Shown here: positions 3 to 15,173 of the stretch, piece after piece | How positions within the stretch are numbered: position 1 is the stretch's first letter | Layout: the number at the start of each line of letters is the position of its first letter | Source: Candidatus Iainarchaeum sp. | Lineage (GTDB): Archaea > Iainarchaeota > Iainarchaeia > Iainarchaeales > 0-14-0-20-30-16 | Length of the DNA stretch: 15,214 nt | NCBI GenBank assembly: GCA_903916665.1 | Contig: CAIWXP010000146.1 | Coordinates: forward strand, 1-15,214 | Reading direction: 5' to 3' | The notes under the pieces: model-generated | The model's input: the letters and a program-made list of their open reading frames with translations, nothing else | Databases searched by the model: none | What the model was told of the DNA's origin: nothing | Position numbers and translations under genes: made by a program

Positions 3-3000
3 ATTGAAAGAAATAAAATTAGAGATGAACAAAGAAGACTGCAAGAAGATGCTAAAAAAAAAAATGAATTGGTAAAACAAAAAGTTAGAGCAGAGGACGC
101 AAAAAAATTAGCTGAAGAAAAAAGAAAAGCATTGGAAGAAGCTAGAAAAAAAGCCGATGCTGAATTAAGATTACAAAAAGCAAGAGAAGAAGAACAACTA
201 AAAATAAGACAATCAGAATTGCAAACAACATTAGACAAAAAGCCAAGATCAAAAGAAGAATTAAAACGAATAATAAAAGAATTAATTGAAGAAATAAAAA
301 ATGGTTTAGGTTCAGCAACAGTAAAAGAAACATTTAGTGAAGATGAAATTTCTAAATTAGCAAATTATTTTTATGAAATTGAAAAAAGAACCGGTGCTCA
401 AATTGATTTATCAAAAATATTTTATAGGAGTTCTGCAAAAAATATTTTAATATTATTAAATAATGGTTTAGAATATTTTTTACCTAATGCTGTTGAAAAA
501 GTTAATGAAGACACTAAATATTTTACCTGTCCAATAGTTGAATCAAGTAGAAAGTATTGTTTGATTTATGTGGTTAAGAATGGAGAAACTAAACCAGCTG
601 TATATTATACTTCGAATTCATCTGTAAGTTGGAGATTGGTTGCACAAAGAGGAACAGCAAATCCAGAACAATTTGATCCTAGTTATTTAAATAAATCAAA
701 TAGGGGAGAAGATGCCTTAGCATTACCTTGGGAATTACAAAAGAAATTAGATGCTCAGAAACCAGTTAATAAAATAATTAATATGAAATATATCTCTCCA
801 TTTTTGGGAGATATATATACCGAATCTCCAGATATAGAAAGAAAATTAATTAAAAGTAAAGATTTGAATAGCTGGGAAGATATTAAAGAAGTTGAAGATG
901 TTATTAATAGTAGTATTAAAGCAGGGCAAGCTAAAAGACCAATTATTGATATTAAGAAAATAGAAAACCAACCTAATTTTTCAAAAGTATTAGAAGTATG
1001 GAATATTCATTCTTCAATGTATGGAGACATGAAAAAAGTAAGTGTTGAAAGTAACGATGGTCAATTGGTTTGGATTTTTAATGTTACTAAATATGGTTCC
1101 TTTGTTAATACAATACAAACAAAAAAACATATTTTATCAAAATATGGTTTGGCAACGGTTCCTGAATTCTCAACAGAATATGATGATTTAATGATGACGA
1201 TGCCAGCTTTAGAGTATCACATACAACCATTGAGACAAATAGCATCTAGATTATTATTAGAAAGATTAGATACTCATTTTTATGGCACCCACAATAAACA
1301 ATTTGTTGATTTATTAGAAATACATGTAAAAGAAATTGTTGAAAATATGAGGCCCGAACATATTGTTGAATTAAAAAAATTAGGTGTTGGTTTAGGACTA
1401 ACAGATCCTGCATTAATAATAAAAAATTATGTTTTAAAATCGATTAAAAAAATGGCAGATGCAAAACAATCAAATGATAAAAATGGCTATGATAATGAAA
1501 GAAAAAAATGGGATAAATTTAAAGAAGATATTGAAAATGCATTGATAATTTCTTCAAAATCTGTTGGATCCTATATGCCAGTAACAAAAACATTATTATC
1601 TCATCCTTTTTTAGCAAGTATTCAAGATCCTTTGAATAGAATTGCAAATGTAGAAAAAATTACGCAAACTTCAAGAAATCCAATTGTTTCACCATTAAAA
1701 ACAGAAGTAAGAGAAAAAAGTATAGATATTTTTAGAATATTTAATAAATACGAAGGTACAGAAAATGGTTTTGTATTTAGTAGATATTTACAATTGTTAA
1801 ATGTAATTGGTAAAAGACAATCAGAAAGAACTTTTGGGGTAACTTCAGAATATATTGATATAGCAGATAAAGCTAATAAAGCAATAGAACAATTTGAAAA
1901 AAAAGAAATTAATGAAAAGTTTTTTAATCATGTTTTTGATGATTTAATTGATATTGCTAATAAACGAAAAAATAGTAATCTTCCAAAACCTAAGGCACCT
2001 GAACCACCTAGACAAAAACCAGGTGAGCCACGAGTAATAAAAGTAAATGTACCTACAGCTCCAAGAAAAAAATTATTAAAAGAAGTTGAGCCAATTGGTG
2101 AACAAGAAAGCGAACCAATAGGAACAAAATCAGATTTAAAAAGATATGTTGAAGAACCATTATTAGCAGCAGCAGAATTATTCTATGATTTAAATATTTC
2201 AACAGTTACAGGTTCTGCAAATAAAAAACATGTTAAAGGATTTAATGTTTATTTAGGAATTGACGGAAGTAAATTAACTCCTGAGAATTTAGCAATTGCA
2301 AAAAGATTGGGTGCATTAAATGGTGGACCACACGCATTGGATAAAGATAAATTAGTATTTAGTATTCCTGTAACCGGAGAAGAAACAGTCGAAGAAATTA
2401 GCAATAAATTTTTAGTAATAGCAAAACAATTTAAAAAACAAGAACTTTCAAAGCCAACACCAAAAAAAGGACCCGAATCTCCAAAACCAAAAGCGCCAGA
2501 ACCACCAAAACCTAATGGTTCAAAAGGACCAGGCCCTATACTGCCAGGCGAACCTAGAGTTATTTTAAATGGTCCAAGAGTAAAATTAACGGGACCAGAT
2601 GCAGCAATAGTTGATTTAGGAAGAATGGATGGTGTTAGTCAAAAAGGTCCAACACGATTAAATGATGAAGATTGGACAACTAGGCCAACAAATTCAAAAG
2701 AATTAAGTCTTTTAGAATTAGAAATTTTAGAAAATTTAAAAAATAGGGCAAGAAAAAAATATGGTGAATTTGGGGATAATTTAGTTTCTGAAATTGCGAA
2801 AAAATCAAAATTAAATATATTAAAGAATGGTGGCGAAGAATTAACAAAAAATGAATTGCAATATTTAGAACGAGAATACAATGAAAGAATACAAGCCTAT
2901 GAACTATTAAAATCATTAAATAATTATGGTTTGGGCGAATATTTTAGCATTGGTGATGCACAAAGAATAATATTTAATATGGTTAAATTTGGATTATTTA

Positions 3001-4028
3001 AAGATGGTTCAGAACTAAAAAGTGTAACTCAAAAAGAAGGCAAAACAGTTTTAACATTATTTCCTGAAATGAAATTAAATTTACCCTTTGATAAAAAAAC
3101 AATTTATTTAGTTTTAGATGATCATTCAATTTTAGAATTAACCCCAAGATTTGCATCGGGTGCTAATTTTTTAGGATTTGCAAGAAAGAAATATTCTAGT
3201 GAAATTTCAAAAGACAATCCAAAAGTAATGGGATTTGTTTTTGTTGATAAAGATGCACATGGTTTTGGTTATCAAAGCTATAGTTTAGAAGAACCAAAAA
3301 AAGAACCAGTATTTGAGCATCCAAAAATAAATTCACAAACAAATGAAAGATTAGTAACTGCAATTAAAAGTGATAATATTGATGCAATTGGAAAACTTTT
3401 CGAACAAAAAGTAGATTCAGGAGAAGTATTGGGTATGCTATTTGTTTTAGAACATGGTTTAGCAGAAATTGATTTCCCTAGTAGAGGAGGATTTGCTGCT
3501 GCAAAAGCTAATTTTCCAGATAAATTTAAACAATTGGGGGAATTTTTAAAACAAATGTTAAAATGGAATTTGACAGCTCAAGAAATTGTAAAAATAAAAC
3601 AAATATTAACAAATCATTTTGATTGGAAAGAAACTAAACCTGCTCAACCAAGGCCTCCCACACCACCTAAGGAAGGACCACAAAGAATTAGAGTAGCGCC
3701 AGGAAATATTGTAGATGAAGAAGTTGAACAATTGGACATTCCTAGAACCCATTCTCCAATGCCAATTAGTGAAACTAGTTTATCTGGTCAAATATTAAGA
3801 AAATATTTAGAATTAAAATTTTATGGATTAAATACAACAAATAGCAATAATTTTGTTATTGCCTGTGAAATAAGATTTATTCATTTAGCTTTTAAAGAGG
3901 GTTTAATTAACGAACAAAAACTATTAGAAGATTGGGATAGATTATTAAAATTAGCAGTTCAAAGAAAAGTAGTTAAAACAGACAGCGCACCAATTATTTC
4001 AAAACCAGTACAAAAAGTAAATGTATAG
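3..4028 (+). CDS. Giant hypothetical protein, 5'-truncated by the window edge (1341 codons visible). It has a K/E/R-rich helical N-terminal part, three proline-rich spacers and several globular modules. No recognisable enzymatic motif.
   Basis: The frame is stop-free from nt 3 to TAG at 4026-4028. The ORF-track start at 69 is a TTG. There is no in-frame ATG and no SD-like motif in 3-68. The 22 upstream codons (IERNKIRDEQRRLQEDAKKKNE) continue the same charged-helix composition. A 4-kb open frame in ~30% GC DNA, where stop codons are AT-rich, cannot be chance. Confidence 0.85.
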   Translation: MERNKIRDEQRRLQEDAKKKNELVKQKVRAEDAKKLAEEKRKALEEARKKADAELRLQKAREEEQLKIRQSELQTTLDKKPRSKEELKRIIKELIEEIKNGLGSATVKETFSEDEISKLANYFYEIEKRTGAQIDLSKIFYRSSAKNILILLNNGLEYFLPNAVEKVNEDTKYFTCPIVESSRKYCLIYVVKNGETKPAVYYTSNSSVSWRLVAQRGTANPEQFDPSYLNKSNRGEDALALPWELQKKLDAQKPVNKIINMKYISPFLGDIYTESPDIERKLIKSKDLNSWEDIKEVEDVINSSIKAGQAKRPIIDIKKIENQPNFSKVLEVWNIHSSMYGDMKKVSVESNDGQLVWIFNVTKYGSFVNTIQTKKHILSKYGLATVPEFSTEYDDLMMTMPALEYHIQPLRQIASRLLLERLDTHFYGTHNKQFVDLLEIHVKEIVENMRPEHIVELKKLGVGLGLTDPALIIKNYVLKSIKKMADAKQSNDKNGYDNERKKWDKFKEDIENALIISSKSVGSYMPVTKTLLSHPFLASIQDPLNRIANVEKITQTSRNPIVSPLKTEVREKSIDIFRIFNKYEGTENGFVFSRYLQLLNVIGKRQSERTFGVTSEYIDIADKANKAIEQFEKKEINEKFFNHVFDDLIDIANKRKNSNLPKPKAPEPPRQKPGEPRVIKVNVPTAPRKKLLKEVEPIGEQESEPIGTKSDLKRYVEEPLLAAAELFYDLNISTVTGSANKKHVKGFNVYLGIDGSKLTPENLAIAKRLGALNGGPHALDKDKLVFSIPVTGEETVEEISNKFLVIAKQFKKQELSKPTPKKGPESPKPKAPEPPKPNGSKGPGPILPGEPRVILNGPRVKLTGPDAAIVDLGRMDGVSQKGPTRLNDEDWTTRPTNSKELSLLELEILENLKNRARKKYGEFGDNLVSEIAKKSKLNILKNGGEELTKNELQYLEREYNERIQAYELLKSLNNYGLGEYFSIGDAQRIIFNMVKFGLFKDGSELKSVTQKEGKTVLTLFPEMKLNLPFDKKTIYLVLDDHSILELTPRFASGANFLGFARKKYSSEISKDNPKVMGFVFVDKDAHGFGYQSYSLEEPKKEPVFEHPKINSQTNERLVTAIKSDNIDAIGKLFEQKVDSGEVLGMLFVLEHGLAEIDFPSRGGFAAAKANFPDKFKQLGEFLKQMLKWNLTAQEIVKIKQILTNHFDWKETKPAQPRPPTPPKEGPQRIRVAPGNIVDEEVEQLDIPRTHSPMPISETSLSGQILRKYLELKFYGLNTTNSNNFVIACEIRFIHLAFKEGLINEQKLLEDWDRLLKLAVQRKVVKTDSAPIISKPVQKVNV
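1983..2072 (+). repeat. Proline-rich spacer copy 1 in giant protein 1 (PKPKAPEPPRQKPGEPRVIKVNVPTAPRKK)
   Basis: It shares KPKAPEPP and PGEPRVI with copy 2 at 2451-2597. The DNA differs at synonymous positions (cct aag gca cct gaa cca cct vs cca aaa gcg cca gaa cca cca). Confidence 0.7.
2451..2597 (+). repeat. Proline-rich spacer copy 2 in giant protein 1 (KPTPKKGPESPKPKAPEPPKPNGSKGPGPILPGEPRVILNGPRVKLTGP)
   Basis: Same KPKAPEPP...PGEPRVI motif order as copy 1. A third, more diverged spacer (KPAQPRPPTPPKEGPQRIRVAPG) lies at 3636-3704. Confidence 0.7.
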
Positions 4029-4035
4029 TTTACTA

Positions 4036-4064
4036 TTTTTCATTTTACATTTTTATCTCTTTTT
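4036..4064 (+). terminator. Cluster of oligo-T tracts downstream of giant gene 1 (candidate archaeal-type terminator)
   Basis: Four T4-T5 runs (4036-4040, 4043-4046, 4050-4054, 4060-4064) lie within 40 nt of the TAG stop. Archaeal RNA polymerase is known to terminate at oligo-T. The AT-rich background weakens specificity. Confidence 0.4.
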
Positions 4065-4146
4065 CATTATTGTTATTTAATGATATATATTTAAATATAC
4101 TCAATCATATATTTGTTATATATAAGTAATGAGTATAATTTTACAA

Positions 4147-4155
4147 TTTATATAT
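4147..4155 (+). promoter_or_regulatory. TATA-box-like element (TTTATATAT) upstream of valS
   Basis: It resembles the archaeal TTTAWATA consensus and is centred about 30 nt upstream of the ATG at 4182. That spacing would give a leaderless or near-leaderless valS mRNA. An exact TTTAAATA also occurs at 4090-4097. AT-rich intergenic DNA gives many TATA-like strings. Confidence 0.35.
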
Positions 4156-4181
4156 TATAATTATGTTTAAAAGTGATACTA

Positions 4182-6626
4182 ATGGAAACTAATGTTAATA
4201 CTGAAAAATCTATTGAAAAAAAGCAAGAAATTAATCAAAAACCTGCTGAGCCAAAAAAAGATTATAAAGAAACTGAAAAAGAAATTTGGGATTTCTGGCA
4301 AAAGGAGCTGGTATACAAATACGATCCAAAATCAACTAAACCTATTTTTAGTATTGATACTCCTCCTCCAACAGTTTCCGGAAAAATGCACCTGGGTCAT
4401 GCCTATTCCTATGTGTTACCAGATTTTATTGCTCGTTATAAAAGAAAAAAAGGATTTAATGTTTTTTATCCTTTTGGCTTAGATGATAATGGCATTCCAA
4501 CTGAGATATTGGTAGAAAAATTAGCAAATGTAAGAGCAAAAGAAGTAGGAAAAAGTAAATTTATTGAATTGTGTTTAAAACATACAAAAGAATCCGAAGA
4601 AGAATTATATGCTGATTTTAAAAGTTTAGGAATATCCTGTGATTGGAATTTATTATATAGAACCATATCCCCAGAAGTAGTTAAGGTTGCGCAATATTCA
4701 TTTTTAGATTTACATAAAAAAGGAAAAATATATAGAGAAAAGGGACCAATATTATGGTGCACTAAATGTCAAACTGCCATATCACAAGCAGAATTAGAAG
4801 ATCATAATAAAGATACTTATTTTAATGATTTAATTTTCAAATTAGATAATGGGGAAAATATAATTATTGCAACCACTAGACCTGAATTTTTAGCTGCCTG
4901 TGTTGCAATATTTGTTCATCCTGAAGATGAAAAAAATAAACATTTAGTTGGTAAATACGCAACTGTACCTTTATTTAATTTCAAAGTAAAAATATTGGCC
5001 GATAAAAGAGTTGCTCAGGACAAAGGAACTGGTATTGTAATGTGCTGTACCTTTGGTGATCAAACCGATATGGAATGGTATAAAAGTTATAAATTAGAAT
5101 TAAAAGAAGCTATTTCAATTGATGGCCGAATGACTAGTATTTGTGGAAAATATGCAGGAATGAAAATTGAAGAAGCAAGAAAAGAAATTATTGAAGAATT
5201 AAAACAACAACATTTAATTGTTGAACAAAAGAAAATTTCACACGCAGTTAATTGCCATGAAAGATGCTCTACTCCTGTGGAAATTATTGTTGAATCACAA
5301 TGGTACATTGATTACATGAACGACAAAAAATTATTTATTGAAGAAGCAAATAAAATTGATTGGAAACCAAAACATATGAAAGTGAGATATGATAATTGGG
5401 TAAATAATTTACAATGGAATTGGTGTATCTCAAGACAAAGATACTATGGTGTTCCTTTTCCTGTTTGGTTTTGTAAAAAATGTGGTAAAACTATTTTTGC
5501 AGAAGAAAAAGATCTACCAATCTATCCTGAAGAAACTATGCCAAAGCAAAAATGTTCCTGCGGTTCCGAATCTTTTATTGCAGAATCATCGGTAATGGAT
5601 ACTTGGTCAATTAGTGCATTAACTCCTTTGATAAATTTAGGTTGGCCAAAAAAGAATATTGATGGCACATTACCTATGAGCATGAGACCTCAGGGTCAAG
5701 ATATTATTACATTGTGGGCATTTAATACCGTTGTAAAAAGTTTATATCACACAGGAAAAATTCCTTGGAATACATTAATGATTAACGGCTATGTTTTAGA
5801 TCCTAAAGGAGAAAAAATGTCTAAGAGCAAAGGTAATGTAATTGGGCCACAAGAAACTTTAACAAAATGGGGCAAAGATCCATTTAGATATTGGAGTGCT
5901 CAAATGACATTGGGAAATGATATTGCCTATTCCGAAAAAGAAATGCAAGCTGGACAAAAATTAATTATTAAATTGGATAATGCAATGAAATTTGTAGATA
6001 TCATGTTACAAAATTATAGCACCATACCAAAATTAAAAGAAATAAAAAAATTAAATGCAACTGATGCATGGATTTTAGCAAAATTAAATAAAATCATAAA
6101 AGAAAATACTGAAGATTTAGAAAAATTTGATTATACACATGCTATTCAAAGAATTAGAGATTTTTTCTTTATTGATTTTTGTGATAATTATATGGAATTT
6201 GTAAAATATAGAGTTTACGGAAATGACGAGGAATCAAAAAAAGCATTGGCCTATACTTTGTTTAATGTTTCATTTCAAATTGTAAATCAATTAAGTATCT
6301 TTATGCCTTTTATTTGTGAAGATGTTTATTTGAAATATTTCAAAAAGCATATAAATACAAAAAGTATAACATCATGCGATTGGCCAAATTCGGAAAATTA
6401 TTTAGAAGAAGATTTAACTAATGGAGAATTATTAAAAGAAATTGTTGGGCAAGTAAGGAAATATAAGAGCCAAAAAGCAATGTCTATGAAACAAGAATTA
6501 GCCAATGTTATAATAAGTTCACCCAAATCTTTACATATTGATTTAAAAAGTGAATTATTATATATAATGTTTATAAAGAAAGTAAATATAATTGAGGGGC
6601 AAGATATAACAATCTTGGAGGAATAA
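4182..6626 (+). CDS. valS: Valyl-tRNA synthetase (class Ia aminoacyl-tRNA synthetase, archaeal type, about 814 aa)
   Basis: PPPTVSGKMHLGHAYSY carries the HIGH-type motif HLGH at 4389-4400. The KMSKS motif lies at 5814-5828 (GEKMSKSKGN). CP1 editing-domain motifs TTRPEF and GTGIVMCCTFGDQTD are present, as is WCISRQRYYGVPFPVWFC. There are Cys pairs (CTKC, CKKCGK, CSCGS). The track start at 4173 is GTG; the ATG at 4182 (METNVNTEK...) fits the TATA spacing better. Stop TAA at 6624-6626. Confidence 0.9.
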   Translation: METNVNTEKSIEKKQEINQKPAEPKKDYKETEKEIWDFWQKELVYKYDPKSTKPIFSIDTPPPTVSGKMHLGHAYSYVLPDFIARYKRKKGFNVFYPFGLDDNGIPTEILVEKLANVRAKEVGKSKFIELCLKHTKESEEELYADFKSLGISCDWNLLYRTISPEVVKVAQYSFLDLHKKGKIYREKGPILWCTKCQTAISQAELEDHNKDTYFNDLIFKLDNGENIIIATTRPEFLAACVAIFVHPEDEKNKHLVGKYATVPLFNFKVKILADKRVAQDKGTGIVMCCTFGDQTDMEWYKSYKLELKEAISIDGRMTSICGKYAGMKIEEARKEIIEELKQQHLIVEQKKISHAVNCHERCSTPVEIIVESQWYIDYMNDKKLFIEEANKIDWKPKHMKVRYDNWVNNLQWNWCISRQRYYGVPFPVWFCKKCGKTIFAEEKDLPIYPEETMPKQKCSCGSESFIAESSVMDTWSISALTPLINLGWPKKNIDGTLPMSMRPQGQDIITLWAFNTVVKSLYHTGKIPWNTLMINGYVLDPKGEKMSKSKGNVIGPQETLTKWGKDPFRYWSAQMTLGNDIAYSEKEMQAGQKLIIKLDNAMKFVDIMLQNYSTIPKLKEIKKLNATDAWILAKLNKIIKENTEDLEKFDYTHAIQRIRDFFFIDFCDNYMEFVKYRVYGNDEESKKALAYTLFNVSFQIVNQLSIFMPFICEDVYLKYFKKHINTKSITSCDWPNSENYLEEDLTNGELLKEIVGQVRKYKSQKAMSMKQELANVIISSPKSLHIDLKSELLYIMFIKKVNIIEGQDITILEE
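6617..6621 (+). promoter_or_regulatory. Shine-Dalgarno-like GGAGG for the 2009-aa gene, embedded in the last codons of valS
   Basis: The sequence reads ttGGAGGaataattATG: GGAGG at 6617-6621, a 7-nt spacer, then ATG at 6629. The valS stop TAA at 6624-6626 lies between the SD and the ATG. Confidence 0.6.
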
Positions 6627-6628
6627 TT

Positions 6629-9600
6629 ATGCCAGTATTAGCTGAAAAACCAAAACCTTTAGCAAACAACAAATTTAGAGAAATGAAAGAAGTTCATAGT
6701 GCCAAAGGTAGAGAAGTAGCATATAAAAGATTATATAACATTGATAATCCTAAATTTGCAGATGTTTTCGGCAAGGCATTGGAAGAAACTCAAATCCCTC
6801 AAAGAAGTTTAATGATATTAAATGCTAATCTGGATAAAAATCAAAGACTGGATATGTTAAGAAAAGAAATCCTAGATAATTTATATGTAACTGCTAATTT
6901 TCAAGTTAAGGAAATGTCTCCCAAAGATAGGGAAAGAACATTTCGTTTTATTTTAAGTGTTATTGTTAGAAATTTAAGAATTAAAGGACAATTAACTATT
7001 AATCCATTTACAGGTAAACCATTACCTCCAATTGGACCAAATCCTACACCTTCAGCACCGCAAGGAAATCCTCAAGGACCTGCACAAAGATCTACCGGAC
7101 CAACTCCTTCTGTTACTTCAACAAGACCAGTAGCACCAACTCCTGGTGTACCTAGTTCTAGAGCAAGACCCGCACCTTCGCAAGTTGCTCCTACTCCTTC
7201 TGGACCTTCGAGACCAGAAACTAGAAGACCTGAAGAAATTGTTAGACCCACTGAACCAAGTATGGCCGATGCTCAAAGAGAAGTTATTAATGTTTTAAGA
7301 GCAAGAACAAAACAAGCAGAAATTGATGAATCCTATAGACAAAGACAAGCTGAGCAAGATGAATTAAAAAGAAGACAAGAAGAAGAAGCTTGGAATAGAA
7401 AAAATGCACAGGATAATCAAAATAAAGAAACATTAAGATTACAAGAAGACAGAGAGAAAAAACTATTTACAAAATCAAGAATAAATATTGCTGAAATTTT
7501 TAATGATTATGAAAAACATTTGGATTTTATGATAAGTATTGGACAAATGACTGAAAAAAGAAAACAAGAATTATTAAACACTTTACAAAGACAAATACCT
7601 AGATTAGGTGCAGAAAAAGCAAGAAATATGATTACTAAAATTTTAGAAAATGACAGAACAAGAATGACTCCTCAACAAAGACAACAAGAAGTTAATGAAA
7701 GACCAACACCGGGACCTGTTACTGCTCCTAGTCAACCAATTGTAAATATTGGTGCAGATAGAATAGGAGCAGAACCAATAGCAACTATATCAACAACACC
7801 GTCTAAAGGAATTGGCGCAGATAGAATTGGTGTTACTCCCGTAAGATCTAGTGAAAGAGGATCAGTTGCAATAACTGCTCAAGAAGAAGCAGCTAAATCT
7901 GCAAGAGTTGCTTTAACCGCAGAAAGACAAAAATTAGCAAATACTTTAGCAGCAAGACAAGCAGCATTGAGTAGAGATGGTAGTGTAAAAATAACAGAAA
8001 GAGATGCAGTAGCAAGAGCTGCTAGGGAAGCACAAGCCCCTAGTGTAGCACCTAGACCTTCTGAAGATAGAAGTGTTGGAATAACTGCAAAAGAAGAAAA
8101 AGCAAGAGCTGCAAAAGAATTAGAATTGCAAAAAGCAAAAGAAGAAGCAGCTAGAATTGCAGAAGCAGGAAGAAGAGAACATGAAATTGTTACCTATAGT
8201 TTATTGGCAAATGAATTAAGTAGAATTAGAAATACATTGGATATTTCTGATGTTAAAACAGCACAGGATTTAGAAGCTAAATTAAAATTGGGACAATTAA
8301 AAATGGACATTAGAATGGTTCACAATATGATTGCAGAAAATATAGATGTAATGAAACAACCTGAAATTGATAATTACACTAAGCAATTATATGATGCAGA
8401 AGATTTATTATATAATTTAAAAAGATTTGAAGAAAATATTGATAAATTCTCACCACAGAGTACTCAAGAATTATTATTTTGGTTAAAAACAGATGTGGAT
8501 AGAAATTGGTTAGGTAATTATATTACATTTGTAATTAATGGTGAAAAAGGAATAAGACCTTTGCCCGACTTTTTTGAAAAAATTGGTGGCGATGCAAAGG
8601 ATTGGGGAATATTAAATAAATATGCTAACGACCATGACATTGTTGGAGAACAAAGAGTTAAATTTTTATTTGATTGGCAAGATGAAACACCAGAAAACCT
8701 AAGGAGTTTTATAGAAGATTTTTCTCCAGAAACACCAGAATCATTGGAAATGCCAAATCCTGTTCCTTTAGATGTATTACCAGAACCAGAAGTTCAATAT
8801 GAAGATCCAGAACTAGAAAGAATCAGAAAAGATAACGATAGAAGAAGAGATATGCTAGATTTAATTGAACGAGAATCTGATGTTTTGGGTACAGTGTTTA
8901 TGCCAACCAATATGTCTGAATTTGATCTACAAGCAGATAAATTAGCAAGTGATAGAGTTGCACAATTAAAAGAAAATATACAAAAACAATTAAAAGAATC
9001 TAGAGCAAATAAAAGTGCAGAAGATGAAAAATTAGAACCTTTAAGAAAGCAAATTAAAAAAGATTATAATGTATTACAAAATATTGTTAGATTAGTTTCT
9101 TTATTAAATCCAGAAAGAAGAAAAGAATATTATGATGCATTGGATAAAATAATGAGAGATACAAAATCTTCAGATTTAGAAACAAATGTTGCGGCTCATA
9201 GAACTGCTATTATTGTATTTAAAAGTTTTTTAGAAACTGCAATAGACAAATTAATTTTTGAATATGGCGACTATGAAAAAGTAATTAAAGAAAATAAAAA
9301 GACACCTTTAGAATGGGTTACAAATTCATTGGAATCAATAAAATCAAGATTAGCAGAATTACCAGAATATAAAGATGTTTTACCAAAAATTGAACAGGCA
9401 TTACAAGCAAAACATAATTATGTAAGTTTAAGAACCGCAAAAAGAATAACTCACGATATAGAAACATTAACAACAATGGATCTAAGAGATGTTGAAACTG
9501 TTTTTGCATTAAGATCAAGATACAGATTTCAACAAATGGAAGATAGATTATTAGAATTTGATAGGTTATTAGCTGATTTAACAGTAAATGGAAATTTATC

Positions 9601-12600
9601 TTATCAAAATACATTAGAATTATTAGATGCACAACTATCTCCAAATAGATTCCATAAAGCAATGAAAATCATTTTTGATAATCCTATGTTATTTAATTCT
9701 AAAATAAATGAATTATTAACTATTTTAAAAACTAGCTACACTTCAACTAGTGGAATAGACGCAAAAACAAGAGAGGTAGATTTATTAGAAGAATTTGTTA
9801 ATACAACATTACAAGCAAATCAAAGAAAGACATTACCAGCACCAGGCTATTCAACAATTACAAATGAAGATATTGCAAAGGATGTTGCCCAAATGTTAAT
9901 TGATTTAAGAAATAAAAGTGCAAGAACAAGATATGAAGCAGGATTAGTATTACAAGCAGATATTGATGCTAGAGATGCTAAAAGACAAGCACAACAAGCA
10001 AGATTAGCTGGAAAAGAAACACCAGAAGAAACATTAAGATTAGATAGAATTGCAAGAAGACAGGCAAGATCAAATAAAAGAATTAATGATCCAAAAGTTC
10101 AAGCAAGAATTGCACAACAAGGTAAAAGAACAAAGGTAAGAGGAGAAGTATTAGAACTAGATGGTAATGATAGTTCTCATTCAGCAATAGCAGAAGAAGA
10201 ACCAGTTGTATTAAAAGATCCAAATCAAACAGAATTTGATTTTAATAATGATGTAAATGCAAAAATAGGTCCAACAAGACTTGCAAAAACAGAAGCAGTA
10301 ATTAGTGAATTACAAATTCAAGAATCTTTTAGCTATGAAAAAATACCTGCAAAACAAGAAGAACAAGAAAAAAGAAAAATTAATAAAGCATTAAGTAGAA
10401 TAAGTAAAAAATATGGAATGGATATTAATGCTGCAAATTTAGAAAGAATTGTTATTAGAATAGATGGTATTGTTAAAATTGGAGATTTTACATTAAAACC
10501 AATTGCAAATATTAGCGATGGAGTATATGTTGAAGAAACTAGTGCTGATGGCAGTAAAAAAATGGTAAAATTAAAATCTAATCAATTAGGAGTTTATTCA
10601 ACCAATAGATTATTTACCTATAATATTGGTACTTTATATGATTCGATTTCAGTTAGAAATCATGGTAAACAATTTGTAGAAAATCTATTAGGTTTATTAA
10701 TACCTCAAAAAGATGGATCTATGGTTGTTTATAGACCCAAAAAACAATATTTAGAAAGAAAAAAAAAAGATGAATCTTCAAGGATAGCAGCATCTACAGA
10801 ATTACCAAAAGGTCAAGTTGATTTATTTGGTGGTAATTCAGAATCAGTTCCTGAAAGAGATGCTAACGAATCAGAAATAAATGAAAATACAGAAGGTCAA
10901 TTAGATTTATTTACAGAACAACAAAAAAAAGATGAAACTGAAAAATCCTATGGCGAAAGATTAGCACAACAAGAAGTACAAAAAATAAGAACTGAAGAAG
11001 AAATGTATAGACAAAGAGATGCTGATGAATTATTAGATCAAACTGAATTAAAATCTTTAGAGCAAGAAGAAGCTGCAGAAGTACAACAACAAGCAGCATA
11101 CAGAACAGCAGCAGGTCAAAGAGATGAAATAAATAGACAAAGAGCAGTTTTTCCTAGCACAGACTATGCAGGACCCGTAACTCAAGGAAAAGAATTAGCA
11201 AAATATGTTGACAAAAAAACATTATTATTAGATAAACTTTCAAAAGCACCAACTATTTTTAATACATTAAAAAATACATTAGAAAATACTACCCCTGAAT
11301 TAGCAAGAAATCCAGAGATAAATCCAATTATTGAAGGAGAAGTATTAAACAATCAATTTGTTATACCTGCAAACGTTCTAGGCCCTAATACAATAGGTTT
11401 TCCCAAAAATCATTTGGTAATTTTAGGACGAAATAATTATACTGTTATTGATTCTTTTGGAAAAGTAGAAACATTTAATCTAGATAAACCTTTGGTTAGA
11501 GATATATCAAGATACAATGGAATATTTATGTTAACCGATGAAGGATTGGTTTGTTGGAGATTGAGTAAATACAATAATAAAATAACAAAAATTAATTCAG
11601 AAGACCCAAATTCTGGTTCTGAAAAAGCATTAACAAGAGAAGCAATTGAAGCAGCAAGACCAAAGGAAATTATAACACCTTTACAAATATTAGAAGATCC
11701 TAGAGCACAAATATTTGCAGCCATAGATAGATTACCCACTGAATTGAAAGATGCTATAAATCTTAGAATTGGAACATTATCAGAAGAAGAAAGAAAACCT
11801 AAATTAATTATGGATCCTTTAGTTTTAAATGATTTAATAGAATTAAGAAAAGAGCCTTCGGCTTTAAGAGAAGACGGAAATACATTGGGAAATAATTATT
11901 ATATTCCTGCAGGTTTATTAACACAGGAACCAATAAATATTTTTGAAAACCATTTATATGTTATTGGAAGAAATAAATTAACAATAGTGAAACCAGATGG
12001 AAAAATTGAAATTGTTAATTATCCTCGATTACCAGAAAATGTATCTGGCGAACAGGGTGCATTTATGTTAACAAGTAAAGGATTTGTATCTTGGAATTTT
12101 GGTTTAAATAAAAATGTAAAATTTGATTTAGAATTAAGATCTAAGCAAATGGATTTACCTGTAGATGCACAATTAGCCTATGACGATATTTTTAAAACGG
12201 CTAAAAGAAAAGGATTAACAAAAACAGCAAATAAATCAGCAATAGAAGCTAAAAAACAAGGATTATTAGATACAAAACAAATAAGAAGTATATTACAAGC
12301 AGAATTTCAAGATAGATCTAGAGTTGCAAAATATTTAGATGATGATTTTGCTAGTAATACAACAAGAACTGTTTTAAGAACAAATGTAAAAGGTTCTGCT
12401 ACATTTAATATGAATGGTTATCAATTAACAGTAACTGATAATGGAATAACTGTCGATGATTTTATGGGCACACACATAATAAACAACCTCACATTAAATG
12501 AAGGCCAAACATTGGTTGCTAACGGAAAAATAAAACTATATACTGAAAGAGCATTTGGTGCTTTTGAAACAAGTAGATTTGTAGGAACTGCAATAGCCGT

Positions 12601-12658
12601 ACCTAAATTTTATATAACTAGATTTGGAGATCGTTTGGTAATACATACATTACCCTAA
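6629..12658 (+). CDS. Giant hypothetical protein (2009 aa). It has an N-terminal globular domain, a P/S/T-rich spacer, charged coiled-coil/Ala-rich repeats, a long helical middle and a duplicated beta-rich C-terminal module. No recognisable enzymatic motif, signal peptide or TM helix.
   Basis: ATG with a GGAGG 7 nt upstream. The frame is open for 6 kb in AT-rich DNA, and all overlapping ORFs are short antisense artefacts. Stop TAA at 12656-12658 is followed by an oligo-T tract. Confidence 0.9.
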   Translation: MPVLAEKPKPLANNKFREMKEVHSAKGREVAYKRLYNIDNPKFADVFGKALEETQIPQRSLMILNANLDKNQRLDMLRKEILDNLYVTANFQVKEMSPKDRERTFRFILSVIVRNLRIKGQLTINPFTGKPLPPIGPNPTPSAPQGNPQGPAQRSTGPTPSVTSTRPVAPTPGVPSSRARPAPSQVAPTPSGPSRPETRRPEEIVRPTEPSMADAQREVINVLRARTKQAEIDESYRQRQAEQDELKRRQEEEAWNRKNAQDNQNKETLRLQEDREKKLFTKSRINIAEIFNDYEKHLDFMISIGQMTEKRKQELLNTLQRQIPRLGAEKARNMITKILENDRTRMTPQQRQQEVNERPTPGPVTAPSQPIVNIGADRIGAEPIATISTTPSKGIGADRIGVTPVRSSERGSVAITAQEEAAKSARVALTAERQKLANTLAARQAALSRDGSVKITERDAVARAAREAQAPSVAPRPSEDRSVGITAKEEKARAAKELELQKAKEEAARIAEAGRREHEIVTYSLLANELSRIRNTLDISDVKTAQDLEAKLKLGQLKMDIRMVHNMIAENIDVMKQPEIDNYTKQLYDAEDLLYNLKRFEENIDKFSPQSTQELLFWLKTDVDRNWLGNYITFVINGEKGIRPLPDFFEKIGGDAKDWGILNKYANDHDIVGEQRVKFLFDWQDETPENLRSFIEDFSPETPESLEMPNPVPLDVLPEPEVQYEDPELERIRKDNDRRRDMLDLIERESDVLGTVFMPTNMSEFDLQADKLASDRVAQLKENIQKQLKESRANKSAEDEKLEPLRKQIKKDYNVLQNIVRLVSLLNPERRKEYYDALDKIMRDTKSSDLETNVAAHRTAIIVFKSFLETAIDKLIFEYGDYEKVIKENKKTPLEWVTNSLESIKSRLAELPEYKDVLPKIEQALQAKHNYVSLRTAKRITHDIETLTTMDLRDVETVFALRSRYRFQQMEDRLLEFDRLLADLTVNGNLSYQNTLELLDAQLSPNRFHKAMKIIFDNPMLFNSKINELLTILKTSYTSTSGIDAKTREVDLLEEFVNTTLQANQRKTLPAPGYSTITNEDIAKDVAQMLIDLRNKSARTRYEAGLVLQADIDARDAKRQAQQARLAGKETPEETLRLDRIARRQARSNKRINDPKVQARIAQQGKRTKVRGEVLELDGNDSSHSAIAEEEPVVLKDPNQTEFDFNNDVNAKIGPTRLAKTEAVISELQIQESFSYEKIPAKQEEQEKRKINKALSRISKKYGMDINAANLERIVIRIDGIVKIGDFTLKPIANISDGVYVEETSADGSKKMVKLKSNQLGVYSTNRLFTYNIGTLYDSISVRNHGKQFVENLLGLLIPQKDGSMVVYRPKKQYLERKKKDESSRIAASTELPKGQVDLFGGNSESVPERDANESEINENTEGQLDLFTEQQKKDETEKSYGERLAQQEVQKIRTEEEMYRQRDADELLDQTELKSLEQEEAAEVQQQAAYRTAAGQRDEINRQRAVFPSTDYAGPVTQGKELAKYVDKKTLLLDKLSKAPTIFNTLKNTLENTTPELARNPEINPIIEGEVLNNQFVIPANVLGPNTIGFPKNHLVILGRNNYTVIDSFGKVETFNLDKPLVRDISRYNGIFMLTDEGLVCWRLSKYNNKITKINSEDPNSGSEKALTREAIEAARPKEIITPLQILEDPRAQIFAAIDRLPTELKDAINLRIGTLSEEERKPKLIMDPLVLNDLIELRKEPSALREDGNTLGNNYYIPAGLLTQEPINIFENHLYVIGRNKLTIVKPDGKIEIVNYPRLPENVSGEQGAFMLTSKGFVSWNFGLNKNVKFDLELRSKQMDLPVDAQLAYDDIFKTAKRKGLTKTANKSAIEAKKQGLLDTKQIRSILQAEFQDRSRVAKYLDDDFASNTTRTVLRTNVKGSATFNMNGYQLTVTDNGITVDDFMGTHIINNLTLNEGQTLVANGKIKLYTERAFGAFETSRFVGTAIAVPKFYITRFGDRLVIHTLP
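11351..11584 (+). repeat. C-terminal module copy 1 of giant protein 2 (NQFVIPANVLGPNTIGFPKNHLVILGRNNYTVIDSFGKVETF...GIFMLTDEGLVCW)
   Basis: It aligns by eye with copy 2 at 11891-12118: IPA, NHL, GRN, T[VI][IV], GK[VI]E and G.FMLT..G.V.W occur in the same order and spacing. Confidence 0.7.
11891..12118 (+). repeat. C-terminal module copy 2 of giant protein 2 (NNYYIPAGLLTQEPINIFENHLYVIGRNKLTIVKPDGKIEIV...GAFMLTSKGFVSW)
   Basis: See copy 1; the two copies start 180 codons apart. A degenerate third copy starts near 12401 (NGYQLTVTDNGITVDDFMGTHII...). Confidence 0.7.
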
Positions 12659-12682: not shown

Positions 12683-12958
12683 TTAAATTAAAACTAGAAT
12701 TAAAAATATAATAAAACAAATTATTGCAAAGGTTCTGTGATAGTAGGCTATTAAACTTAATAGTGGTGGAACTAAAAGCAATAAAATTGCTTCTTGCTTT
12801 AATATAATATGCATTGCAATATAGTAACCAAACAGACTACCCAATGCAAATATCATGAAAATAACGGCGACTAATAAAGATATTGATTTACCAACATATA
12901 ACCAAATTTTATCAAATAATTTTTCAAAAGGGGTACCTATAGTTTTCCAATCAACCAT
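12683..12958 (-). CDS. Small integral membrane protein (91 aa, about 3 TM helices)
   Basis: ATG is preceded by GGTGAG (12964-12969) with a 5-nt spacer. Three hydrophobic stretches are visible: SISLLVAVIFMIFALGSLFGYYIAM, AILLLLVPPLLSLIAYY and FAIICFIIFLILVLI. It is the last gene of a tightly spaced minus-strand cluster. Confidence 0.6.
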   Translation of the reverse strand: MVDWKTIGTPFEKLFDKIWLYVGKSISLLVAVIFMIFALGSLFGYYIAMHIILKQEAILLLLVPPLLSLIAYYHRTFAIICFIIFLILVLI

Positions 12959-12963
12959 AAAAT

Positions 12964-12969
12964 CTCACC
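12964..12969 (-). promoter_or_regulatory. Shine-Dalgarno-like GGTGAG for the 91-aa membrane protein gene
   Basis: The minus strand reads TAATTGGTGAGATTTTATG. GGTGA is complementary to the conserved ...UCACC... near the 16S rRNA 3' end. The spacer is 5 nt. It lies in the 18-nt gap after the 69-aa gene stop. Confidence 0.45.
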
Positions 12970-12976
12970 AATTAAA

Positions 12977-13186
12977 TTATATCATTTTTTTTGCCATCTT
13001 CTTTGCTTTTCTAAAACAACCTGTATGCCACATTTGACCTAACCATTTCCTATCGGGATTATCACCCTGGCAAAAAGCACATTTTTCTCCTGATGCTTTT
13101 GAATTTTCCTGAGCAATAACCTCTGGTGTTTGTTCTTCTTTACCTACTTTAGGAATTAATTTCTTTAAAAAATCTTTCATTGTCAT
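12977..13186 (-). CDS. Small zinc-finger protein (69 aa), C36-x2-C39-x14-H54-x2-C57, with a Lys-rich tail
   Basis: ATG start. KCAFCQGDNPDRKWLGQMWHTGCFRKAKKMAKKMI provides four metal ligands. It lies 24 nt downstream of the 546-aa gene and 18 nt upstream of the 91-aa gene on the same strand. Confidence 0.65.
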   Translation of the reverse strand: MTMKDFLKKLIPKVGKEEQTPEVIAQENSKASGEKCAFCQGDNPDRKWLGQMWHTGCFRKAKKMAKKMI

Positions 13187-13210
13187 TTAATCGCCCTATA
13201 TTAAATTAAT

Positions 13211-14851
13211 TTATTTTTGCCAATTCTTAATATCAAACTCACTGTCTGTATTATACCCTTGGAATGTTTGCTTCAAATCCTCTTGATTTGGTTTTTCTTC
13301 TTTATTAGTTTGTTTTTGATCTTCCTTTGGTTCATTCTCTTTCTTGGGTTTTCTTTTAAACAAATTTTTCCAAAATGTAATAAATCCATTTTCCTTTTTT
13401 GGTTCTTCTTGAGATATGTCGTGTTTTTCTAATTCTTTTGTATAATTATTTATACTTTCATCACTAATGTGTGCTTCATCAACACTTAAATCTTCATCGT
13501 TTACTTGTACTTTTTCTTTATTATCTGAAAATATTGCATTCATTAATTCGCTTGAAGGTTTATTAGCTTTATAATTATTTGTATCTTTTTCTTCTTTAAT
13601 GGTTTCATCAAATGTTTGTTTAGGCTCTTTTTTTCTAGTCGTCAATATTCTTTCATTTAAATAGGATACTTTTATACTATATTCATTTAATTTAGACTCA
13701 AATTCCCTTTTGTTTATATCGCCTTGTAAATATTTTTCTTTTATTTCCTTAAGTTTTGTTTTATAATTATCTCTTTCTATTGTAAGATCTTCCATGGTTT
13801 CTCTAGAAAATATTGCCCTAAGTATTAATATAATATTTATTAAAATAAAAATTCCTACTATAATTAAAAATAAAGTCCAATAGGTACCTGGATTTAAAGG
13901 CTCGGTAATTTGAGCATAGTAAATTTTATTATTAAATGAAAATCCTAAATTTTCATCTAAATTTGTAAATGGTATTAAAAGTTTATTATAACAAAATGAA
14001 TTATTTCTAATATAATATTCTTTTTCAGAGTCATTTAAATTTATTTTAAATATCCCCATATCATTAACTGAATCACCATTTGTGTATAAAACAGTAAAAC
14101 ATAGTTCAAAAGGATTACTAATAACAGTATTTTTAGGATTAGTTACTTCACCTATTTTTAATCCTTCTAATAAGGTTGAATTAATGATTAAATTTAAAGG
14201 ATATGTTTTTGTACCTTTTATTGTTTTATTAAATGTACAATAAATAGGAATTGTATTTGTATCTTCTTTAACAGTTAATAAATAATTACAATTATTTGAT
14301 TTAGAACAATCAAAACTAGTTTCAGAATCATAGGAGTTTAATGAACATTTTAAATCAGATATTTGTTGATTTTTCAAATCTTCAAAGTTTAATAATATTT
14401 CTTTTTGTTCACCAATTGTTAATGTTTTATAATCGTCTAAAGGATTATTTTTTAATTTAATGATTTCAGTTATATCCCCAATGGGATAGGTTTGCTTTGT
14501 ATTGGTAAAGCTACCTTCTAAAGAAGTAATAATGGATAATACTAATTTACCATCGGTTAACATATCTTTTGTTATTATTGTATTTTGCAAATGATATATA
14601 TTTCCTGAATCTTTAGAAAAAGTATATTTATTTGTTCCAATTTTAACAGACAAATTATTTATATTTGGATAATTTAATATCTGTTTGTTACTATCAACCA
14701 ATAAAATTTTCAAATCAACTATATTGGTTCCAATATAATAAGGACTACTATTTGGATATTGAGTATTTATTTCATAGTTTATTTGGTTAGAATATGCAAA
14801 ACCAAATAATAATAAAATAAAAAAGATGGAAAAGAAAATTTTGGAGTTCAT
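13211..14851 (-). CDS. Type I membrane protein (546 aa). It has a signal peptide, an ectodomain of about 300 aa with Cys and N-x-S/T sequons, one TM helix, and a K/E-rich cytoplasmic tail of about 200 aa with a SHOCT-like helix.
   Basis: The N-terminus MNSKIFFSIFFILLLFGFAYS/NQ is signal-peptide-like (14789-14851). The TM helix YWTLFLIIVGIFILINIILILRAIF lies at 13808-13882. The tail contains LKEIKEKYLQGDINKREFESKLNEY (13679-13765). It is a long ORF in AT-rich DNA. Confidence 0.85.
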   Translation of the reverse strand: MNSKIFFSIFFILLLFGFAYSNQINYEINTQYPNSSPYYIGTNIVDLKILLVDSNKQILNYPNINNLSVKIGTNKYTFSKDSGNIYHLQNTIITKDMLTDGKLVLSIITSLEGSFTNTKQTYPIGDITEIIKLKNNPLDDYKTLTIGEQKEILLNFEDLKNQQISDLKCSLNSYDSETSFDCSKSNNCNYLLTVKEDTNTIPIYCTFNKTIKGTKTYPLNLIINSTLLEGLKIGEVTNPKNTVISNPFELCFTVLYTNGDSVNDMGIFKINLNDSEKEYYIRNNSFCYNKLLIPFTNLDENLGFSFNNKIYYAQITEPLNPGTYWTLFLIIVGIFILINIILILRAIFSRETMEDLTIERDNYKTKLKEIKEKYLQGDINKREFESKLNEYSIKVSYLNERILTTRKKEPKQTFDETIKEEKDTNNYKANKPSSELMNAIFSDNKEKVQVNDEDLSVDEAHISDESINNYTKELEKHDISQEEPKKENGFITFWKNLFKRKPKKENEPKEDQKQTNKEEKPNQEDLKQTFQGYNTDSEFDIKNWQK

Positions 14852-14858
14852 ACGAAAC

Positions 14859-15173
14859 CTACATTTTCCTCAAACTTTCCAAACACTCATTACAAATAGT
14901 TATATTTTTAAAATTTGTAAAATTTTCTGTAACTAAACCGCAAGAACTACATCTTACTTCTTCTGCATCATCCAATGCCCAATCTCTTAAAAATTCCCAA
15001 GTAATCCAAGAAGGCATAATTAGTTCTCTTAAAACTGATTTATCATTTTCTACTATTCTTTTCTTAAATAAAGCAGGTATTTTTTGATCTATTGTTTGCA
15101 ACCATCTTGCCCTATCTGATTGTCCAGTTCTTTGCAATTTCATGGCCATTTCTTCAATTTGTTTTTTGTCCAT
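14859..15173 (-). CDS. Small protein (104 aa) with a C-terminal C4 zinc finger (C75-x2-C78-x15-C94-x2-C97)
   Basis: ATG is preceded by GGGGTG (15179-15184) with a 5-nt spacer. The C-terminus is RCSSCGLVTENFTNFKNITICNECLESLRKM. The TAG stop lies 7 nt before the ATG of the 546-aa gene. Confidence 0.7.
   Translation of the reverse strand: MDKKQIEEMAMKLQRTGQSDRARWLQTIDQKIPALFKKRIVENDKSVLRELIMPSWITWEFLRDWALDDAEEVRCSSCGLVTENFTNFKNITICNECLESLRKM

Follow-up and report, generated by a model that had tools for sequence, protein, structure and literature searches.

What are the two giant genes that fill most of contig CAIWXP010000146.1, and do they belong together? We call the whole contig the window (15,214 nt; it is the longest contig on record with the second giant). 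The first giant gene, g1, runs off its left edge. The second, g2, encodes 2009 amino acids (aa). Between them lies valS, the gene for a valine--tRNA ligase (ValRS). A first-pass annotation had described both proteins as ORFans built on the same plan and as possible distant paralogues. It had also estimated that the pair takes up about 10 kb of 15.2 kb and brackets valS. This is correct, as g1 and g2 cover 66% of the contig, one on each side of valS, which was recognized by the NCBIfam model NF009687.

Our answer, held with middling confidence, is that g1 represents the C-terminal ~1341 residues of a genuine archaeal gene, member of an undescribed mosaic family and of a conserved gene pair, and that its product is likely a non-enzymatic scaffold or tether. 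The protein has homologues, its composition is mosaic, the gene order around it is conserved, and in relatives the two members of the pair are paralogous.

The open frame and its relatives

The frame of g1 (frame 3, + strand) is open from nt 3 to its stop at 4026-4028. It holds 1341 codons and one stop, while the other two + frames over the same stretch present 140 and 172 stops. At this base composition (28% guanine plus cytosine, GC, was used; the whole window has 27-30%), the chance of an open frame of such length is ~3e-56. The codon usage of g1 follows that of the neighbouring genes, with correlations of relative synonymous codon usage (RSCU) of 0.94-0.97 and a GC content at third positions (GC3) of 0.11. 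Likewise, g1, g2, valS and a 546-aa gene use codons alike (RSCU r 0.91-0.97). Because of these frame statistics, and of the codon usage common with valS and other neighbours, g1 is a real gene.

Because the contig extends no further than the window, the 5' end of g1 is out of reach. The protein is longer than its 1341 visible codons, as the first-pass annotation stated from a frame open to nt 3. Its start lies off the contig, since homology to P0002, a relative of 3228 aa, starts already at g1 aa 16, which aligns with P0002 aa 295. If both proteins are collinear, g1 probably lacks ~280 N-terminal residues here.

The ORFan label did not survive an exhaustive search. We used g1 aa 95-1294 as HMMER query against 1.84 billion cluster representatives. 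It retrieved 270 proteins with E<=1e-3, 32 of them with E<=1e-10 and 3 with E<=1e-30, the best at 4e-105. The division of g1 into the modules given below rests on these matches. Word-indexed searches returned nothing with whole g1 or with an alignment of the N-terminal domain (N-domain) of the family, and whole g2 found only itself. These null results for g1, g2 and the N-domain are false negatives, because the exhaustive search found 270 relatives. Probably, the charged and Pro-rich segments swamped the candidate lists. This is a practical warning: word-indexed searching labelled as orphans two giants for which exhaustive HMMER found hundreds of relatives.

The relatives are not annotated either. 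No significant match to g1 appeared in Pfam, NCBIfam, PHROG, PADLOC or PDB sequences; the sole PHROG match (E 0.0024) falls on the charged helix. The PADLOC defence-protein models gave no family for g1, g2, P0002 or P0006, and g2 and P0002 as whole proteins have no Pfam match. No Pfam family covers the regions of the relatives that match g1. Relatives of g1 were absent from the IMG/VR scan, from the JGI metagenome contig scans and from the GenBank phage collection (tblastn). Two candidates were discarded. P0127 turned out to be a cadherin-like repeat protein, and its 17 weak matches were taken as spurious; a recurring 'PRVxV' linker motif did not hold outside g1.

The modules of g1

The visible part of g1 is arranged in the following order.

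3..4028, + strand: g1, last 1341 codons and stop of a giant gene truncated at the contig edge (open frame, codon usage, 270 homologues)
21..203, + strand: ER/K-rich segment, predicted single-alpha-helix type, aa 7-67 (composition and charge-pair statistics)
330..1670, + strand: module A, aa 110-556, conserved core of g1 counterparts (homologues P0002-P0008)
513-1238, + strand: widely conserved core of module A, aa ~171-412 (also in P0160 and P0135)
1671..1949, + strand: segment aa 557-649, predicted helical by a low-confidence model
1950..2066, + strand: Pro/Glu/Val/Lys-rich spacer 1, aa 650-688 (Pro 17-30% in 30-aa windows)
2067..2450, + strand: module B, aa 689-816, unannotated alpha/beta domain (HMMER matches and AlphaFold2)
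2451..2669, + strand: Pro-rich spacer 2, aa 817-889 (composition)
2577-2657, + strand: conserved island of ~24 residues in spacer 2, aa 859-885
2670..3314, + strand: module C, aa 890-1104, helices and then a beta-rich part (both predicted)
3315..3632, + strand: module W, aa 1105-1210, predicted helical unit (P0009, P0002)
3633..3737, + strand: Pro-rich spacer 3, aa 1211-1245 (composition)
3738..4025, + strand: C-terminal module D, aa 1246-1341

Module A links g1 to its counterparts. It shows 40% identity with P0002 (E 4e-105 to 1e-104), 47% with P0003, and 28-34% with P0004 to P0008 (E 1e-33 to 1e-43; P0004 1e-43, P0006 1e-34). The exhaustive search places it in ~10 clusters. Its core is also present in P0160 and P0135, proteins of single-domain size. 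The conserved columns of this core are R, Y, S, S, W-R, K, E, Q, G, P and E-Y; an invariant Asp, His or Cys was not found in it. Module A has no match in Pfam or among PDB sequences, its profile included.

Module B draws most of the 270 HMMER matches, and almost every one of the 150 listed. The bulk are stand-alone proteins of 190-200 aa; a few are giants of 2420-4765 aa. The module has ~125 aa, with the consensus EPI..VE.PLL.ACE.FYDKNI.T..SSANKKD...IDF..LS.EN..IA...IP...T..E...IA..FKKQ. Its relatives, P0010-P0151 among them, fall into hundreds of clusters of ~195-aa proteins from candidate phyla radiation (CPR) bacteria and DPANN archaea. The cluster members are hypothetical proteins of Woesearchaeota, Minisyncoccia and Kaiserbacteria. 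AlphaFold2, with an alignment of 89 sequences and g1 as target, predicts an alpha/beta domain with a predicted local distance difference test (pLDDT) of 91 and a predicted template modelling score (pTM) of 0.85. Foldseek found nothing significant for this model in PDB (best E 0.17, TM-score 0.36) or BFVD, and the profile matches no PDB sequence. The viral-contig scan for module B was empty, and the stand-alone genes have no consistent neighbours. Module B is a real, widespread and undescribed domain common to CPR and DPANN. The giants P0119, P0032, P0044 and P0102 (CPR and other metagenomes, 3231-4765 aa), which carry module B, fuse unrelated known domains within one ORF, an odd architecture: sigma-70 r2/r4 with GT9, HEAT and HTH; mTERF with HEAT; DnaJ; and DPBB.

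The other parts are less widely matched. Module W aligns with two copies in P0009 (E 5e-21 and 1e-5) and with P0002 residues 1575-1683 (E 3e-7). For module C, the segments of P0002 and P0004 set against it were chosen by eye, and the statistics do not support the alignment. No match covers module D, where the HMMER query stopped at aa 1294. The segment aa 557-649 has no homologue among the 150 matches listed. Its helical prediction comes from the single-sequence AlphaFold2 model of aa 95-1294, which had a pLDDT of 38 and was not used otherwise.

The segment at aa 7-67 appears to be an ER/K helix, as the first-pass annotation proposed for this E/K/R-rich stretch. Our criterion was at least 60% charged and at most 15% hydrophobic residues, without Pro or Gly. 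Here, 37 of the 61 residues are charged and 9 are hydrophobic; Pro and Gly are absent. Opposite-charge pairs number 20 each at i/i+4 and i/i+3, against 10.5 +/- 2.4 in shuffled sequences, and none of 2000 shuffles attains that count. Inspected by eye, the hydrophobic positions (13, 23, 24, 28, 36, 44, 55, 57 and 66) do not fall into a clean heptad. ER/K single alpha-helix (SAH) spacers have been described in myosin VI and X, caldesmon and other proteins. The segment in g1 resembles them: 61 residues long and composed of E, K, R, A and Q, it has charge pairs at twice the shuffled level and is placed between an upstream part and a globular module. However, the g1 helix is a prediction, and the equivalent stretch in P0002 is shorter and broken by prolines. 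It is not a family-wide feature.

The alternation of globular modules with Pro-rich spacers, also noted in the first pass, holds in g1 with three spacers (~aa 650-688, 817-889 and 1211-1245). Spacer 1 reads KPKAPEPPRQKPGEPRVIKVNVPTAP. These P/E/V/K-rich linkers (e.g. KPKAPEPPKP, GEPRVI) lie between folded modules, like the Pro-rich spacers of titin PEVK and TonB. Unlike in that comparison, there is no sequence homology, and an elastic or spanning role would hold by analogy only. A further difference is that spacer 2 holds an island, GPRVKLTGPDAAIVDLGRMDG (GPDAAIVDLGRMDG, KLTGPDAAIVDLGRMDG), which is 75% identical to residues 613-634 of P0006. This suggests a binding motif over a pure spacer, and the island may be a linear binding motif. 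In P0006, the matching stretch likewise precedes a globular module; in g1 its surroundings are of low complexity.

The protein has 3 Cys (0.22%), the same number that was counted in the first pass. The first pass saw no transmembrane (TM) segment, and no 19-residue window of g1 reaches a Kyte-Doolittle hydropathy of 1.6. The same holds for g2, P0002, P0006 and a second giant at the related locus L013 (all five with maxima of 0.97-1.44), complete N-termini included. No signal peptide or TM segment was found in any complete family member, and the giants look cytoplasmic in this respect. Cys amounts to 0.05-0.4% in these five giants, to 0.05-0.7% across all complete members and to 2.2% in the ValRS. 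The family is fast-evolving, Cys-poor and without TM segments, with modules joined by Pro/Glu/Val/Lys-rich spacers and charged helices. Its module pool comprises the N-domain, the R repeat and modules A, B and W, among others.

The partner g2 and the conserved pair

The rest of the window contains the following features.

4182..6626, + strand: valS, archaeal-type valine--tRNA ligase (NF009687, 1000 bits against a cutoff of 738)
6629..12658, + strand: g2, the partner giant, 2009 aa (N-domain and R modules)
6629-7003, + strand: N-domain of g2, aa 1-125 (common to P0002, P0006 and the second giant of L013)
11303-11596 and 11873-12133, + strand: R modules of g2, aa 1559-1656 and aa 1749-1835 (internal duplication)
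12683..15173, - strand: conserved downstream block of 4 genes (counterparts in the same order in L013 and L018)
12683-12958, - strand: 91-aa TM protein of this block
12977-13186, - strand: 69-aa Cys-rich open reading frame (ORF) of this block
13211-14851, - strand: 546-aa protein of this block, with signal and TM segment
14859-15173, - strand: 104-aa Zn-ribbon protein of this block

Are g1 and g2 paralogues? A direct comparison does not support it. The visible g1 against g2 gives E 0.19 with BLASTP and nothing with fragment BLAST. The profile comparison that the first-pass annotation had proposed yields no significant similarity, with E 0.1 in hhalign of homologue-enriched profiles. At the level of modules, hhalign gives E 0.02-0.5 (W against the N-domain 0.02; the beta part of module C against R 0.29).

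The indirect evidence supports it. P0002 has A and W in common with g1, and has the N-domain (E 4e-7) and three R repeats (E 3e-33) in common with g2. In P0006, module A resembles that of g1 (E 1e-34), and the N-domain (E 5e-14) and R (E 1e-8) resemble those of g2. The two neighbouring giants of L013 match each other in three regions (E 2e-12, 1e-16 and 5e-8). The N-domain alignment includes g2, P0002, P0006, P0004, the second giant of L013 and a gene downstream of valS in the locus L010. Distant paralogy of the pair is then supported through these mosaics and neighbours, and not by g1 and g2 themselves. As the sequences indicate, the members of this mosaic family are put together from a single set of modules, and wherever both neighbours are complete, they are paralogous.

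The claim of a common plan also needs a correction at the N-terminus. It had been said that g2 likewise begins with an E/K/R-rich helix. Instead, g2 begins with a globular N-domain of ~125 aa, followed by a Pro-rich linker and then a charged helical stretch, and no window of g2 qualifies as ER/K by the definition used for g1. The order in P0002 is N-domain, Pro-rich linker, charged helix and module A. The first visible residues of g1 align to the charged-helix step of this order, and for that reason the same plan is a reasonable description. We infer that the missing N-terminus of g1 would carry the ~125-aa N-domain.

The internal duplication of g2 (39% identity, E 8e-15) defines the R unit. 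Three copies of it occur in P0002, and one each in P0006 and the second giant of L013. Most of the R copies in these four proteins conserve GR and SRxH. Compared by hhalign with a profile of three forkhead-associated (FHA) sequences, in the GR...SRxH register, R gives E 0.008 with a probability of 5%, and control modules give 0.3-0.5. The R profile has no match among PDB sequences. In P0135 (497 aa, ENA metagenome), the A core is fused to a canonical FHA domain with Rad53-like PDB matches (PF00498; 24.3 bits, gathering threshold 20.7). This FHA is the only known domain seen joined to any module of the giant family. The R modules may be divergent FHA-type phosphopeptide binders; we treat it as a lead and not as a finding.

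The pair recurs in related genomes, which the first-pass annotation had put forward as a check. It is present in three of them: the window, L010 and L013. In L010, P0002 is followed directly by a valS, and the ValRS encoded there is 76% identical to that of the window. A further gene begins 20 nt past valS and runs off the contig, and its first 130 residues align to the N-termini of both g2 and P0002. In L013 (JGI metagenome), the order is a class II aminoacyl-tRNA synthetase (aaRS) on the - strand, P0006 (1216 aa), the second giant (1457 aa) and the downstream block. The second giant is the counterpart of g2 (N-domain E 1e-22). The downstream genes, on the - strand, encode 90, 65, 536 and 104 aa. 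Compared with the window block, the identities in L013 are 59% for the 91-aa, 44% for the 546-aa and 72% for the 104-aa protein. L018 has 48% and 37%.

The loci L018-L020 contain a compact g1-like gene. It consists of the end of the N-domain, a short linker and module A, and it lies directly before the downstream block with no g2 between. The giants thus have valS between them in two of the three genomes. Because L013 has no valS between its giants and L018 has no g2 before the block, a special link of the pair to valS does not hold, and the bracketing is a local arrangement. In L018 (619-621), and also in L019 and L020, an in-frame TAA replaces a conserved Gln of 'ALALPWE[LI]Q' in module A. 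It is identical in three independent samples and could be a fixed nonsense mutation, a split gene or a case of read-through.

The giants change much faster than the genes around them, according to these alignments. With L010, the ValRS is 76% identical, and only about half of g1 aligns to P0002, at 27-40%. With L013, the neighbours are 44-72% identical, and no more than roughly a quarter of g1 or g2 can be aligned (23-33% identity). At the same locus, the giants range from 1216 to 3228 aa.

Some observations concern the window itself. Six ORFs of at least 80 aa were taken as genes. The 69-aa ORF was absent from the ORF list. It lies between the genes for the 91-aa TM and the 546-aa proteins, is rich in Cys and His (MTMKDFLKKL...CAFCQG...WH..C...) and is possibly zinc-binding. 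It is kept in L013 (65 aa) and L018 (72 aa). The start of valS is ambiguous, with GTG at 4173 or ATG at 4182. The spacer between g1 and valS (4029-4181) has 153 nt, is AT-rich and holds TTTAAATATA, which resembles an archaeal TATA box. The ATG of g2 lies 3 nt past the valS stop (window 6624-6631). As only these 3 nt separate them, valS and g2 are probably co-transcribed. Exact-product look-ups of g2, the ValRS and the 546-aa protein matched no other contig.

The source is a low-GC archaeon, probably of the DPANN/Woesearchaeota type. This rests on the presence of TBP and DTD2 (PF00352, PF04414) in the syntenic loci, on archaeal gene neighbours (other proteins with module A are located among archaeal ribosomal, exosome and proteasome genes) and on Woesearchaeota relatives of the ValRS. 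The closest in GTDB are Woesearchaeota metagenome-assembled genomes (MAGs), with 47% identity. The ValRS-based scan of GTDB genomes gave relatives of at most 47% identity, and no giants next to valS. Archaeal-type ValRS, 43-45% identical to that of the window, is also present in MAGs of Cloacimonadota and other bacteria (L002, L003, L004, L005 and L008), which suggests inter-domain transfer of this valS type.

A probable scaffold, and the readings against it

What might such a pair do? Most likely, the giants are non-enzymatic, and they would work as an extended beads-on-a-string scaffold or tether assembled from shuffled modules. The globular modules would be binding units, with a reach set by the ER/K helix and the polyproline-like spacers. 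The common N-domain could serve as docking or oligomerisation site for both partners, and the R modules of g2 may bind phosphopeptides in the manner of FHA. We favour this reading because no enzyme family is present and the A core has no invariant Asp, His or Cys. The beads-on-a-string build, the ER/K helix, the PEVK-like spacers, the common N-domain and the possible phosphopeptide-binding repeats in relatives speak for it too. Pfam, NCBIfam and PADLOC returned no enzyme family. In g1, g2, P0002, P0004, P0006 and the second giant of L013, neither an enzymatic nor any other known family was found, at E cutoffs of 0.1 (proteins of the window) and 0.01 (the other giants).

Several points weigh against this scaffold. 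The N-domain of g1 is extrapolated from P0002, P0006 and L018, and the N-terminus of g1 lies beyond the contig. With Pfam FHA, the best result for R is E 0.12, from one of seven copies and below the gathering threshold, and R is missing from the visible g1. The confident model of module B resembles no solved structure and so is silent on function. The single-sequence AlphaFold2 model of g1 is unusable, and for A, C, W and D a scaffold role is predicted from sequence. A ligand-binding or catalytic site could yet be made up of the conserved polar residues in the A core. Finally, a protein that is exported or faces the host would account equally well for the near-absence of Cys and the rapid turnover of modules.

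A more elaborate version can be imagined. The pair might be an undescribed system of two paralogous, cytoplasmic, spring-linked mega-scaffolds. They would dock through the N-domain and form phosphorylation-dependent complexes by means of the FHA-like repeats. Their modules, B included, would have been exchanged between CPR and DPANN and would diversify rapidly at the symbiont-host interface. We regard this as a doubtful speculation.

The main rival is an exported or host-facing role. The giants would then be adhesin-like or effector-like interaction proteins of an episymbiotic archaeon, exported by a non-classical route, with modules diversified by host-symbiont conflict. We consider it possible, if rather unlikely. 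Cys is extremely low in the giants compared with the ValRS, and the giants change faster than their neighbours and vary widely in size at the same locus. Their N-terminus is conserved and their C-terminal modules are variable, and module B is common to CPR and DPANN, two radiations of ultra-small episymbionts. Moreover, giant surface proteins are known in other reduced symbionts (bioRxiv 10.1101/2025.05.02.651781). However, all complete family members are devoid of signal peptide and TM segment, and Pfam recognizes no adhesin-type (Ig, cadherin, beta-helix) or toxin domain. The genes are also embedded among housekeeping genes, and g2 begins 3 nt after valS.

The surface giants of other symbionts permit a closer comparison. 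Each of the eight large proteins of Ca. Sukunaarchaeum has 4 or more predicted TM helices; the SPEARE proteins of Nanohaloarchaeota are described as surface proteins (bioRxiv 10.1101/2025.05.02.651781). Like them, the giants of the window are very large, have no assigned function and take a big share of a small low-GC archaeal genome region. They also lie side by side on one strand, with a suspected role in a host-dependent life style. Unlike them, the window family has no TM segment, signal peptide or known domain, and no sequence similarity was seen between both groups. An identity of the source with Ca. Sukunaarchaeum was rejected: its large proteins are multi-TM, and the syntenic loci of the window carry genes that are not minimal, among them those for MscS, a PALP enzyme and GT2.

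Another reading makes g1 a multi-functional, polyprotein-like giant with divergent enzymes as unannotated modules, similar to the CPR giants that carry module B. We find it quite improbable. Those giants do hold Sigma70_r2/r4, GT9, HEAT, DnaJ, mTERF and DPBB domains, and the A core conserves R, S, K, E and Y. Nevertheless, the six giants searched present no enzymatic or known family, and the profiles of modules A and B match nothing among PDB sequences. The CPR giants, e.g. Kaiserbacteria OGG53553.1 (4029 aa), resemble g1 in module B, at 32-40% identity, and in being multi-kilobase mosaics. In contrast to g1, these giants are bacterial, carry known domains (DPBB, sigma-70, GT9, DnaJ, mTERF) and gave no module A match in the g1 search.

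That an integrated mobile element or virus carries the pair as cargo is very improbable. A tyrosine-recombinase gene is found a few kb upstream in L010 and L013, and the giant genes have no annotated function. Against this, IMG/VR and the GenBank phages hold no relatives, no PHROG family is significant, and the codon usage of the giants is that of valS. In two genomes, the integrase itself belongs to a stable block with DTD2, class II aaRS, valS and TBP, as would suit a chromosomal Xer-type recombinase. Least probable of all is that the frame is a decaying or non-functional low-complexity remnant, open by chance or newly inactivated: the TAA in a close relative (L018-L020, three samples) and the large parts of g1 without detectable homologue are outweighed by the 1341-codon frame at 28% GC (chance ~3e-56), by modules conserved across several genomes (E 1e-33 to 1e-105) and by the confident model of module B with g1 as target sequence. 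The mobile-element, polyprotein and pseudogene readings have little support.

With regard to FHA scaffolds (PF00498; Rad53 FHA1, GarA), the resemblance consists of the FHA of P0135 joined to an A core and of the GR...SRxH pattern in R of g2, P0002 and P0006. The difference is that the R modules, below the Pfam threshold and missing from the visible g1, do not have the usual S-x-N-G motif. Overall, the pair belongs to none of these classes: not to the ER/K proteins, the PEVK/TonB spacers or the FHA scaffolds, and not to the giants of Sukunaarchaeum, Nanohaloarchaeota or CPR. It stands among the large lineage-specific proteins of ultra-small symbionts, and is distinct by its soluble-looking, paired and module-shuffled design. 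We weigh it as uncharacterised sequence, and not as a new mechanism.

Giants without assigned function fill a large share of the small DPANN and CPR genomes, and leave one of the main gaps in the account of how such organisms live on their hosts. This locus offers a concrete handle, a conserved two-gene pair that splits into at least 5 recurrent unannotated modules (N, A, B, R and W). One of these, module B, is widespread in CPR and DPANN, with a confident model unlike solved structures, and another, R, may be a divergent phosphopeptide binder.

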